Virus genome (UHGV): UHGV-0169486
Origin: a virus
Length of the DNA stretch: 50,405 nucleotides
Strand: one strand, 5' to 3'
The notes under the pieces were generated by a model. That model saw nothing but the letters and a program-made list of their open reading frames with translations. It had not been told where the DNA came from and searched no databases. The position numbers were made by a program, and so were the translations under genes. Positions 39,233 through 42,785 of the stretch are shown one piece after another. The first letter of the stretch is position 1. Every line of letters starts with the position of its first letter.

Positions 39233-39416
39233 CGCCCCGCTTATAGATATGCACTGGCTTAACAGGAATGGCAGGCAATTCGCCTTCATTTAACGCGCTT
39301 GCCATACCTAATATTAAACGCGCTTCCGCACCAGTAACTTTCTTACACCATGCGCCGCCTGTTTTGTCTTCAAATAAGATAACAGCGAACTGATCGTTTA
39401 TTTCCAGCTTATCCAT
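39216..39416 (-). CDS. hypothetical protein
   Basis: ORF track; directly downstream of Q. Confidence 0.5.
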   Translation of the reverse strand: MDKLEINDQFAVILFEDKTGGAWCKKVTGAEARLILGMASALNEGELPAIPVKPVHIYKRGDDENN

Positions 39417-40138
39417 TATTCACCCCGTGTCACTCGCTTGATTTCGCTTTCCGCGCGGGCTTCTTCTTTGAATAGCTCCGCTATGGCGTCCTCATAGAAA
39501 ACCCTGTATTTCTTCCACCATGTTGATCGGCTTACCGGGAAAACAAGCTGGTTAACAGCCTGCCGGACAAGATCTACAGGGAAACGCGAGTAGCCTCGCC
39601 CGCCGCAGTGCTGGCACGTTTTGAATACTGGCATTTCCGCCGCTTCGCTGGCTGTTTTATCCGGTATCTCGCCACTCCCCTTGCATTGTTTACAATGATT
39701 GCGAACCTTTCCATGCCCCTTGCATTTTTTGCAAAGATGTTTTTCTCCGTAGTCGTCAAACGTAAATTTATATCCGCCGCACTCCATACAAGTTTTTTCC
39801 GTCGCGGCGCTTTGGCAATAATCCCGAAACGCGAAAACGGCAACAAGAATAATAAGATCATTGCGTTGTTCTTCATTTAATTCCATCACATATTCGTAAT
39901 CTTTCGCCATAGCTCTTAAACGCTCTGTAAGCAATACTACAGCCCTGTGTTTTTCGGCTTGCGATAGCTCCATCTTCCCTAAAAAAGCACTATAGCCAAG
40001 CTCTACGCGCGATTGCGCCATACCCGCAGCGGTTAGCGCATCAGTCGTATTAAGCGCATCCGGGGATGTGCCCCGGCTTTCGTCTGATAATCGCGGTGAT
40101 TTGGGAAAGTGGAATTTCAGAATGGATTCTAAATTCAT
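39416..40138 (-). CDS. Q: late-gene antiterminator Q-like protein with Cys-rich insertion
   Basis: N-terminus MNLESILKFHFPKSPRLSDESRG...AAGMAQS recalled as similar to lambda Q; multiple CxxC pairs; GGGGGGA RBS. Confidence 0.75.
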   Translation of the reverse strand: MNLESILKFHFPKSPRLSDESRGTSPDALNTTDALTAAGMAQSRVELGYSAFLGKMELSQAEKHRAVVLLTERLRAMAKDYEYVMELNEEQRNDLIILVAVFAFRDYCQSAATEKTCMECGGYKFTFDDYGEKHLCKKCKGHGKVRNHCKQCKGSGEIPDKTASEAAEMPVFKTCQHCGGRGYSRFPVDLVRQAVNQLVFPVSRSTWWKKYRVFYEDAIAELFKEEARAESEIKRVTRGE

Positions 40139-41517: not shown

Positions 41518-41543
41518 AATGCTCTCTCCTTTTCAGGTTATTT

Positions 41544-41579
41544 CTACGCATTTCAGCGATGCCGGATTTTTAAAGAGTA
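41544..41579 (-). promoter_or_regulatory. third boxA/boxB-like element (CTCTTTAAAAATCCGG plus short hairpin)
   Basis: 16-mer identical to the nutR-like boxA at 48877-48892, in sense orientation on minus strand; preceded by TTGTTC-16-TATACT promoter-like sequence. Confidence 0.4.
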
Positions 41580-41676
41580 TTTTGTTTGCTTGAAGTATAC
41601 AAAACGGATGCGCCAGAACAAGGCGAAAAGCGCCATTATGTGATGCATATCACGCTATGACGCCATTTTGTAAACT

Positions 41677-42441
41677 TTAGTCCGGTAAAACGCGGTTAAG
41701 CGTAGTCCGCGTGATGGCCCTGTCGTTAGCCAGGAATACAGCTCGTGCGAAGCCGCGCGGCGTTAGTGAGCGGATCATCTTAGTGCGCTTCGACTTTCCG
41801 CCTAACTTCGCGTGCTGCTTACTGTCTTCCCATTCATCCGGCATTGGTACAGGCCGGAATAGCGGCTGCTTAAATCCATTACCACACCAAATACATGTTT
41901 TCTTCGTGTAGGCATCGCGGTCGGCAATGTATTCCGGGAAAGCAGGATGTTTGTCATCTTCAGGCAGGTAGCCACCGTAAACGCAAGGATTGAAGATAAA
42001 ATCCGGTTTACGCCATAACGTTGACAGTGCGCCAACTGGATTTTCCACCATCCACGGCACGTTATACATATTCGCCAGTTTTTCTACAATTTTTGCGTTA
42101 TACGCCGCCTTTACCTGGAAGCCAGGATCTTTTTTCCGTTTATCAGCGAACCAACGAGCGCCTGATACGGCAAGATCATCACACGGAGGAAAGCCCAAGA
42201 TAATGTCAGGATCTGGATAAACAGACAATTCAGGGGAGAACATTACCAGGAAATGGCTGTCAATCCATACGTTAACATATTCAATATTTGGATGAATTAT
42301 TTTTACCCCGTCATAATCCCCGTGATTAGCGCCGTCATAGTTGAAGCAATAGCATTTATAACCAGCTTCCGCCCAATCTTTAACGGCGTACCCGCTTCCG
42401 TCGTACAGCGACCAGATAACCCAATTTCTAAGCCCGCTCAT
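41677..42441 (-). CDS. DNA methyltransferase, C5-cytosine-like motifs
   Basis: Motif I-like SLYDGSG, motif IV-like GFPPCDDLAVSGAR, motif VI ENV (WMVENPVG). Confidence 0.6.
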   Translation of the reverse strand: MSGLRNWVIWSLYDGSGYAVKDWAEAGYKCYCFNYDGANHGDYDGVKIIHPNIEYVNVWIDSHFLVMFSPELSVYPDPDIILGFPPCDDLAVSGARWFADKRKKDPGFQVKAAYNAKIVEKLANMYNVPWMVENPVGALSTLWRKPDFIFNPCVYGGYLPEDDKHPAFPEYIADRDAYTKKTCIWCGNGFKQPLFRPVPMPDEWEDSKQHAKLGGKSKRTKMIRSLTPRGFARAVFLANDRAITRTTLNRVLPD

Positions 42442-42785
42442 TTTCCACCCTCAAACGTGAAATAGCGGCGCATGATGATAGTGATCACCGTTACCGCTGC
42501 CATTTTTGAGATGAATTGAATAGCTGATATTTCCGGCATAAATGCCATAAACGATAGCGTGGGAAAAATTAACGCATCGCCAATGGCGGACGCTATATTT
42601 GCAGGCCAGCGTTTGGAATCGAAATCACCAGGTAGAACCCGGTAAACGCCGCCAGAAATAAGCGCACCGGAAACAACCGCGACGAATTCGAATTCCCGAT
42701 CCATTCCTCTAAAAACAGGTTTCGGCGTCTGCCATAGGTCTTTTATTTCTTTCGGCGTATGACTGCCGCCGTAATCATTTTTCAT
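42438..42785 (-). CDS. hypothetical protein (hydrophobic C-terminal half)
   Basis: ORF track; 4-nt overlap with downstream gene. Confidence 0.5.
   Translation of the reverse strand: MKNDYGGSHTPKEIKDLWQTPKPVFRGMDREFEFVAVVSGALISGGVYRVLPGDFDSKRWPANIASAIGDALIFPTLSFMAFMPEISAIQFISKMAAVTVITIIMRRYFTFEGGK

Follow-up and report, generated by a model that had tools for sequence, protein, structure and literature searches.

A predicted compact DNA cytosine-C5 methyltransferase of phage family PHROG 757 in the nin-type operon of an mEp021-like coliphage

Introduction

The closest experimentally described relative of the gene considered here is the Dcm of phage K42, a phage that is 95.4% identical to KarlJaspers/Bas06 (bioRxiv 10.1101/2023.08.16.553469). 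All isolated K42 mutants that escape the retron Ec86 disrupt the 711-bp dcm gene, and expression of K42 Dcm leads to high levels of 5mC in msDNA, as detected by LC-MS, while a C82A/E128A/K175A/K176A mutant leaves msDNA without 5mC (bioRxiv 10.1101/2023.08.16.553469). The enzyme triggers retron Ec86/Eco1, and such a Dcm is encoded by 34 out of 35 Ec86-sensitive phages (bioRxiv 10.1101/2023.08.16.553469). Independent groups have accepted this trigger role (PMC12916289).

A second described system is gp52 of Pantoea phage AAS23. This protein had no conserved-domain match but was related by HHpred, with 99.7% probability, to the solved Dcm structure 3ME5 (PMC8004638). AAS23 virion DNA behaves in digests as Dcm-methylated and EcoRII-resistant DNA (PMC8004638). 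Part of this methylation may come from the Dcm of the AAS23 host. Related genes are also annotated in the phages MagusPhagus and mEp021, and a DNA cytosine methyltransferase is one of the genes that the mEpimmI paper gives for this group (PMC11893012).

Here we compare with these systems a methyltransferase gene in a 50,405-nt stretch of viral DNA (UHGV virus genome UHGV-0169486), referred to throughout as the window. The gene had been picked out in a sequence-only reading of the window, and we follow up the claims of that reading on its class, motifs, activity, and role.

Results

The methyltransferase gene is a genuine, intact gene under strong purifying selection. The sequence-only reading had described an open reading frame of 254 aa at 41677..42441, and we confirmed it as a complete CDS (254 aa plus stop, with an ATG start) for a compact, Dcm-like DNA cytosine-C5 methyltransferase, adding that it lies on the minus strand. 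The start codon overlaps the stop codon of the upstream open reading frame (ATGA), and a Shine-Dalgarno-like GAGGG is located ~7 nt 5' of it. In pairwise comparisons, dN/dS of the gene was 0.057 versus MagusPhagus and 0.089 versus mEp021, and we consider the reading frame genuine because of these values and because homologs were found with E values down to 1e-169. A scan for promoters and terminators around the gene gave only background-level signals.

The window represents a temperate coliphage of the mEp021/MagusPhagus type, with 84%–92% nucleotide identity over the methyltransferase region, and the gene lies within a leftward nin-type early operon. On the minus strand, small genes of unknown function are followed by a fusion of a Dam remnant with a membrane-protein fragment, the methyltransferase, a NinF-like gene, NinG (PF05766 match, E 3e-64), RusA, and antiterminator Q. 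No vsr-like gene was found among the neighbors of the methyltransferase gene. The fusion is a chimeric, translationally coupled upstream open reading frame of 115 aa (42438..42785, minus strand), in which the N-terminus of Dam (~35 aa) runs into a C-terminal membrane-protein segment of ~80 aa. It matched only positions 1–29 of 169 in the Pfam Dam profile, and positions 94–172 of 175 in phrog_4899. Alignment to MagusPhagus identified this open reading frame as the scar of a 1,182-bp deletion, which is flanked by ATTYGTCGCGG and has its junction near 42687. MagusPhagus and mEp021 retain intact Dam, DUF6378, and membrane-protein genes directly upstream of the methyltransferase gene, whereas the window lacks the 1,182 bp there.

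We also found the locus as a prophage in 35 out of 5,426 complete Escherichia coli genomes. The prophage copies are named either "DNA cytosine methyltransferase" or "hypothetical protein" by PGAP, and this inconsistent naming in RefSeq arises because Pfam and NCBIfam are without this family.

The window gene belongs to a large and already annotated family of phage C5-methyltransferases, and is not a new kind of enzyme. Its protein matched phrog_757 ("DNA methyltransferase") with an E value of 6.4e-88, with aa 5–247 aligned to profile positions 13–226 of 247. We found 2,387 homologs of the protein (best E 1e-169), and tblastn recovered homologs in 1,519 phage records, most of them under the names putative cytosine methyltransferase or Dcm. 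Host genera of these phages included Escherichia, Klebsiella, Salmonella, Shigella, Campylobacter, and Vibrio, among others. An exhaustive HMM search extended the family to 2,153 representative clusters at E ≤ 1e-3, with 221 at E ≤ 1e-30. Two annotated genes are orthologs in matching genomic positions and share the PPC-D sequence of the window protein, namely CDS0097 of MagusPhagus ("DNA methyltransferase," 96% identical) and mEp021_33 ("putative DNA cytosine methyltransferase," ~84%–89% identical).

Compactness is a trait of this family, since close homologs in PHROG 757 have a median length of 231 aa and representatives one of 237 aa. The window protein had been called short, which is correct compared with canonical C5-methyltransferases (~330–470 aa) but not within PHROG 757, where its 254 aa place it on the long side. 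This slight excess in length is due to a clade-specific, low-confidence C-terminal tail (aa 240–254).

Sequence searches with the window protein gave little indication of its class. Pfam and NCBIfam scans returned no match even at E ≤ 1, and phmmer returned no match in the PDB. Relatives did reach PF00145 with weak or sub-threshold scores, 14 out of 38 matching at E ≤ 1 (best 1.3e-6) and four out of 95 diverse members at E ≤ 0.01. When profiles were searched against the PDB with hmmsearch, a profile of close homologs retrieved DNMT3B and M.HaeIII at E values of 0.5–0.7, which are not significant, and a more diverse profile retrieved DNMT2 amid unrelated dehydrogenases and a kinase at E ~0.4, also not significant. 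Because these matches are non-significant and unrelated Rossmann enzymes score alike, sequence profiles alone cannot prove membership in the C5-methyltransferase class.

The predicted structure and the profile-to-sequence alignments gave a clearer indication. An AlphaFold2 model built from the family alignment had a pLDDT of 87.7 and a pTM of 0.87, and a Foldseek search of the PDB with this model gave 75 matches at E ≤ 1e-3. The top 50 matches were all catalytic domains of DNMT3A, DNMT3B, or DNMT3C, with E values of 3e-7 to 3e-5 and a probability of 1.00, at TM scores of only 0.4–0.5. In BFVD, phage "DNA-cytosine methylases" of the same family came first (TM 0.80), followed by canonical viral C5-methyltransferases. 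Using hhalign, we aligned a diverse family profile with DNMT3A at E 1.3e-4 over 81 columns covering motifs I to IV. Greedy alignment extended this to 218 columns (E 3.8e-5), lining up motifs I, IV, VI, and VIII and pairing family SLFDG with DNMT3A SLFDG, PPCTDLA with SPCNDLS, ENP with ENV, and YTKKTCIW with HRARYFW, the last pair appearing only in this greedy mode and with low per-column confidence. The alignment with a single M.HhaI sequence was not significant (E 0.21) and kept motifs I, IV, and VI in the same order; the alignment of the family profile with E. coli K-12 Dcm was likewise not significant (E 0.04–0.41, Prob ≤ 1.3%) and had the same motif order. The DNMT3A and M.HhaI catalytic-domain sequences used matched PDB chains 5yx2_A and 10mh_A exactly.

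Together, the DNMT3A/B/C fold matches, the collinear motifs I, IV, VI, and (putatively) VIII, and 61% identity to the KarlJaspers Dcm support the original call of a C5-cytosine DNA methyltransferase. The model supports a predicted C5-methyltransferase with a class I Rossmann-like methyltransferase fold that matches solved C5-methyltransferases.

Most of the motifs reported from the sequence were found where they had been described. The motif I-like SLYDGSG, a putative AdoMet-binding loop, is present at aa 11–17 (42391..42411, minus strand), and the family consensus at this site is SLFDGSG or SLFDxTG. It pairs with SLFDGIATG of DNMT3A and the DLFAGxGG loops of M.HhaI and Dcm, and it is divergent, with position 15 variable in distant family members. 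Motif IV, GFPPCDDLAVSGAR, is also present, at aa 83–96 (42154..42195, minus strand), with the predicted nucleophile Cys87 at 42181-42183 and the variable Asp88 at 42178-42180. Within this motif, P86-C87 pairs with the PC of DNMT3A/B, M.HhaI, M.HaeIII, and Dcm. In contrast, the ENV motif VI named in the sequence-only reading does not occur in literal form. The protein instead has VENPVG, or E133-N134-P135, in the M-V-E-N-P-V region at aa 131–136 (42031..42048, minus strand), where Glu133 is the counterpart of the glutamate in ENV and the canonical Val gives way to Pro, as it does in 123 out of 125 representatives. These three residues pair with the ENV of DNMT3A, M.HhaI, and E. coli Dcm.

Two further conserved regions lie toward the C-terminus. 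The motif VIII-like D-A-Y-T-K-K-T-C-I-W-C-G-N-G-F at aa 176–190 (41872..41916, minus strand) appears to have K180/K181 where DNMT3A has R-A-R-Y-F-W-G-N, and no fewer than 113 out of 125 representatives (91%–96%) retain each of its residues D176, Y178, K180, T182, and W185. The block L-G-G-K-S-x-R-T-K-x-I-R-S-L-T-P-R-G-F-A-R-A-V-F-L-A-N at aa 213–239 (41725..41805, minus strand), the putative motif IX/X equivalent, is invariant or nearly so among close homologs and well conserved in diverse representatives. By sequence comparison, this LGGKS...IRSLTPRGFARAVF block could be motif IX or motif X. An alternative hhalign alignment set LGGKS opposite LLGRS of DNMT3A motif X at a non-significant E of 0.21, and global mode gave only meaningless end-overlap alignments for this C-terminal assignment.

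Across the 125 representatives, the catalytic positions were conserved for Cys87 in 117, Glu133 in 122, Asn134 in 116, Pro135 in 123, and K180 in 114. The family-invariant residues P85-P86-C87, G94, E133-N134-P135, D176, Y178, K180, T182, W185, R224-S225, P228, and G230 are all found in the window protein. Its sole departure from the core consensus is T88D, which is common to its own clade.

The residue that follows the catalytic Cys is predominantly Thr in PHROG 757, and the family signature is FPPC-T-DLAVSGA. Among 120 close homologs, this residue was Thr in 112 and Asp in six, with no PPC found in the remaining two. The 125 diverse representatives had Thr (107), Asp (6), Arg (4), Glu (3), Gln (1), or Met (1). 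Overall, Thr accounts for ~86%–93% of the family and Asp for ~5%, and Gln is almost never found. Asp88 is typical of the mEp021 clade, which includes the window, MagusPhagus, mEp021, and a few others. The window encodes it by GAT, and MagusPhagus and mEp021 by GAC, and Asp is kept at dS of up to 0.87. Outside the family, the HMMER alignment showed PC-N-DLS at the equivalent site of DNMT3B, with the same PCN in the DNMT3A sequence. The position holds Q in M.HhaI and Dcm, N in DNMT3A/B, and T in K42 Dcm. Since active human DNMT3B has PCN, PCQ is not universal among bona fide C5-methyltransferases. The sequence-only reading had treated PPCD as an anomaly relative to a "canonical" PCQ, a view that does not hold for a family with PC-T as its norm and PC-D as a recurrent minority, nor in view of the PCN of active human DNMT3B.

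Comparison with KarlJaspers links the window protein to the enzyme described in K42. The KarlJaspers gene bas06_0055 (MZ501090, an accession taken from the BASEL supplement) has exactly the 711 bp of K42 dcm, and over 232 aa its product shares 61% identity with the window protein (E 1e-100). Residues C82, E128, K175, and K176 of KarlJaspers Dcm, the positions mutated in K42 Dcm, correspond to C87, E133, K180, and K181 of the window protein at a constant offset of +5, with all four conserved. The two proteins thus belong to the same family and length class (236 versus 254 aa) and agree at the positions of the catalytic Cys, the Glu of motif VI, and both Lys. They differ in that K42/KarlJaspers Dcm has PPC-T, whereas the window protein has PPC-D plus the 15-aa clade-specific C-terminal tail. 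Their genomic settings also differ, K42/KarlJaspers being a lytic T1-like phage (Drexlerviridae) and the window a temperate mEp021-like phage with a nin-type operon. We note that another 236-aa protein with C82/E128/K175/K176, P0085, was considered as the K42/KarlJaspers enzyme and rejected, as it is a Salmonella-phage member. Identity between AAS23 gp52 and the window protein is 55%. Activity had been listed as unknown, which is no longer accurate at the level of the family, because K42 Dcm makes 5mC by LC-MS.

By analogy to K42 Dcm and the EcoRII-resistant DNA of AAS23, the target of PHROG 757 enzymes from enterobacterial phages is probably the inner C of CCWGG. In the K42 study, CCWGG was assumed from host Dcm and supported only by the loss of defence when CCTGG in msDNA was mutated (bioRxiv 10.1101/2023.08.16.553469). 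Our literature search found no methylome map of any PHROG 757 member. The putative target-recognition region (aa ~140–222) is very short and highly conserved, which makes a common target probable for the members from enterobacterial phages. Within the window, CCWGG was neither avoided nor enriched (108 observed versus ~125 expected), and counts of GATC and other sites showed no informative avoidance.

Discussion

We consider it highly likely that the gene encodes a predicted-active, SAM-dependent DNA C5-methyltransferase of PHROG 757 whose expression would be early and antitermination-dependent, from the nin-type operon of an mEp021/MagusPhagus-like phage. Such an enzyme would flip the target cytosine out of the helix, after which Cys87 would attack C6 and Glu133 would protonate N3. 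Lys180 and Lys181, in place of the motif VIII arginines, may hold the base and phosphate. The methyl group of SAM would then be moved to C5, and beta-elimination would free the enzyme. The likely role is self-methylation of replicating phage DNA against CCWGG-type restriction, especially in dcm-negative hosts, and a known cost of such activity is that it can set off abortive infection by retron Ec86/Eco1.

Given what is known of the family, the importance of the result is modest: it corrects the view that PC-D, ENP, and small size are unusual, all three being traits of a very common phage methyltransferase family. At ~230 aa, such a methyltransferase has almost no recognition domain. What has been documented for an ortholog is that it triggers retron defence, and by analogy to K42, Ec86/Eco1 (for example in E. 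coli BL21) is predicted to sense phages that carry the window gene. Other papers cite a peer-reviewed retron paper with the title "DNA methylation activates retron Ec86 filaments...".

The anti-restriction role proposed in the sequence-only reading is plausible, and the most credible alternative keeps the same biochemistry and changes only its purpose. Methylation could act in gene regulation of the phage or its host, in the control of lysogeny, or in packaging, a possibility to which we assign a small but real chance. Several observations fit such a purpose, including that the phage is temperate, that its usual E. coli hosts already methylate CCWGG via host Dcm, and that the gene is placed among recombination and regulatory nin genes. 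In the BASEL study, too, these methyltransferase genes had no simple relationship to how Drexlerviridae resist restriction (PMC8594841). However, the family occurs in many strictly lytic phages (Drexlerviridae, Vequintavirinae-like), for which protection is the simplest common denominator, and the literature examined describes no regulatory phenotype. Protection of phage DNA stays our preferred reading of the purpose, and the choice between the two does not affect the chemistry.

It is very unlikely that Asp88 marks a disabled or re-tuned enzyme, with the protein of the mEp021 clade surviving as an inactive remnant or DNA-binding pseudo-enzyme. The residue is rare, being found in only ~5% of family members, and the deletion that destroyed the neighboring Dam gene indicates that methylation genes are not inviolable in the window genome. 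Yet dN/dS is 0.06–0.09 over the whole gene, the remaining catalytic residues are all intact, and the position is naturally variable (Q, N, or T) in active C5-methyltransferases. Because Asp88 is kept across synonymous GAT/GAC changes at dS of up to 0.87, it appears to be a selected, functional variant. In sum, the sequence comparisons argue for PC-D as a minor, clade-specific variant of the usual Thr that is tolerated and selected rather than inactivating.

We likewise regard as very unlikely a substrate other than the duplex phage genome, either RNA (as in DNMT2-like tRNA m5C methylation) or only ssDNA and hairpins. The best PDB methyltransferase match of the diverse profile was DNMT2, but at a non-significant E of 0.39, and the domain for target recognition is minimal. 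Direct demonstration of a substrate for an ortholog is confined to the retron msDNA stem-loop, but the target there sits in a base-paired DNA stem (bioRxiv 10.1101/2023.08.16.553469). In addition, AAS23 virion DNA shows Dcm-type resistance to digestion (PMC8004638). The structural neighbors of the window protein are DNMT3-type DNA enzymes, in keeping with the preferred reading of a DNA methyltransferase.

Cx-SAM is made in E. coli through CmoA. Phage C5-methyltransferase homologs with altered cofactor use are known from CmoX (PMC12783734), but we rejected a CmoX-type carboxymethyltransferase, and regard transfer of any non-methyl group (e.g., carboxymethyl from carboxy-SAM) or the start of a hypermodification pathway as very unlikely, because K42 Dcm of the same family (the Dcm of its reference phage KarlJaspers being 61% identical to the window protein) yields 5mC by LC-MS and because partner genes are missing: CmoX is larger, needs Arg at position 350, and adjoins phage CmoA and ligase genes (PMC12783734), whereas the window gene has as neighbors the Dam remnant, NinF-like, NinG, RusA, and Q, with no phage CmoA or ligase gene nearby.

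Among solved enzymes, the DNMT3A/3B/3C catalytic domain gave the best matches in structure as well as in profile alignment (E 4e-5 to 1e-4), and PHROG 757 resembles DNMT3 more closely than bacterial C5-methyltransferases. The two have in common SLFDG in motif I, PC-[N/T/D]-DL-[S/A] in motif IV, an xxW-G-N that follows the putative motif VIII, and a target-recognition region of very small size. They differ in overall similarity, with only 10%–15% identity and TM scores of 0.4–0.5, and in ENV versus ENP and R-x-R versus K-K-T. DNMT3 enzymes also have clear motifs IX and X, are oligomeric, and carry regulatory domains. We think it unlikely that PHROG 757 is a viral group whose specific sister is the catalytic domain of eukaryotic DNMT3, rather than a shrunken bacterial Dcm. 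If it were, so small a recognition region might lead to a short or relaxed target that differs from the one of host Dcm, and replacement of Thr by Asp in the mEp021 clade might tune specificity or catalysis.

Canonical bacterial C5-methyltransferases (E. coli Dcm, M.HhaI, and M.HaeIII; PF00145) share with the window protein the order of motifs I, IV, and VI, the catalytic Cys and Glu, and presumably the chemistry. They are 327–472 aa long, with a large target-recognition domain (TRD), PCQ, and ENV, whereas the window protein has 254 aa, no large TRD, PCD (PCT or PCD in the family), and ENP. The window enzyme possibly shares the CCWGG target of E. coli Dcm. Judged by these sequence comparisons, "Dcm-like" is a functional nickname for the phage enzyme and not a statement of orthology to E. 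coli Dcm.

Genomic context of the methyltransferase gene

Gene content around the methyltransferase gene (41677..42441, minus strand) differed from that of MagusPhagus, a phage with an ortholog in the same genomic position. Comparison of the two sequences showed that the window lacks 1,182 bp present in MagusPhagus, with one copy of an 11-bp microhomology (ATTCGTCGCGG / ATTTGTCGCGG) on either side of the missing segment. A DUF6378 gene was lost in this deletion, along with most of a Dam N6-adenine methyltransferase and the N-terminal half of a protein with six transmembrane segments. The complete set of these three genes was retained in the phage relatives listed, as well as in the full-length E. 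coli prophage copies.

Upstream of the methyltransferase gene lies a chimeric 115-aa ORF (42438..42785, minus strand), with its junction near 42687. Residues 7–34 resemble only the first 29 profile positions of Pfam Dam (PF05869), and residues 34–111 resemble the final 80 profile positions of phrog_4899, a membrane protein.

Downstream, the annotation of mEp021 places a terminator between the genes for its cytosine methyltransferase and NinF. A simple scan of the corresponding 157-bp intergenic gap in the window (41520..41676, minus strand) found no convincing terminator. This gap is AT-rich, and its sole hairpin is a weak GGCG(CTTTT)CGCC. Further along the same strand, the Q-like antiterminator (39416..40138, minus strand; PF03589, E 5e-29) also had a weak match to a DnaJ-type CXXCXGXG zinc finger (E 7e-6), under the Pfam threshold.

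Relationship to other methyltransferases

PGAP naming of the E. coli RefSeq orthologs varied between "DNA cytosine methyltransferase" and "hypothetical protein," which is consistent with the family having no Pfam or NCBIfam model. Among BFVD matches, two proteins from uncultured Caudovirales, A0A6J5SE15 (1,397 aa) and A0A6J5NPY6 (1,126 aa), carry structural relatives of the small methyltransferase domain joined to very large helicase-like proteins. Given these fusions and the 11 proteins longer than 300 aa among the matches listed in the representative search, the domain sometimes occurs within bigger enzymes.

Neither M.HhaI nor E. coli Dcm is as close to the compact phage family as the catalytic domain of eukaryotic DNMT3. 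In hhalign comparisons, the profile of a diverse family alignment matched DNMT3A (over window residues 8–96 and 130–190) with E 4e-5 to 1e-4, whereas matches to M.HhaI or Dcm reached only 0.2–0.4. DNMT3 also accounted for all of the top 50 Foldseek matches. This closeness may reflect ancestry, or merely small size and DNMT3 over-representation in the PDB. Both motif I SLFDG and motif IV PC-x-DL are common to DNMT3 and the compact phage family.
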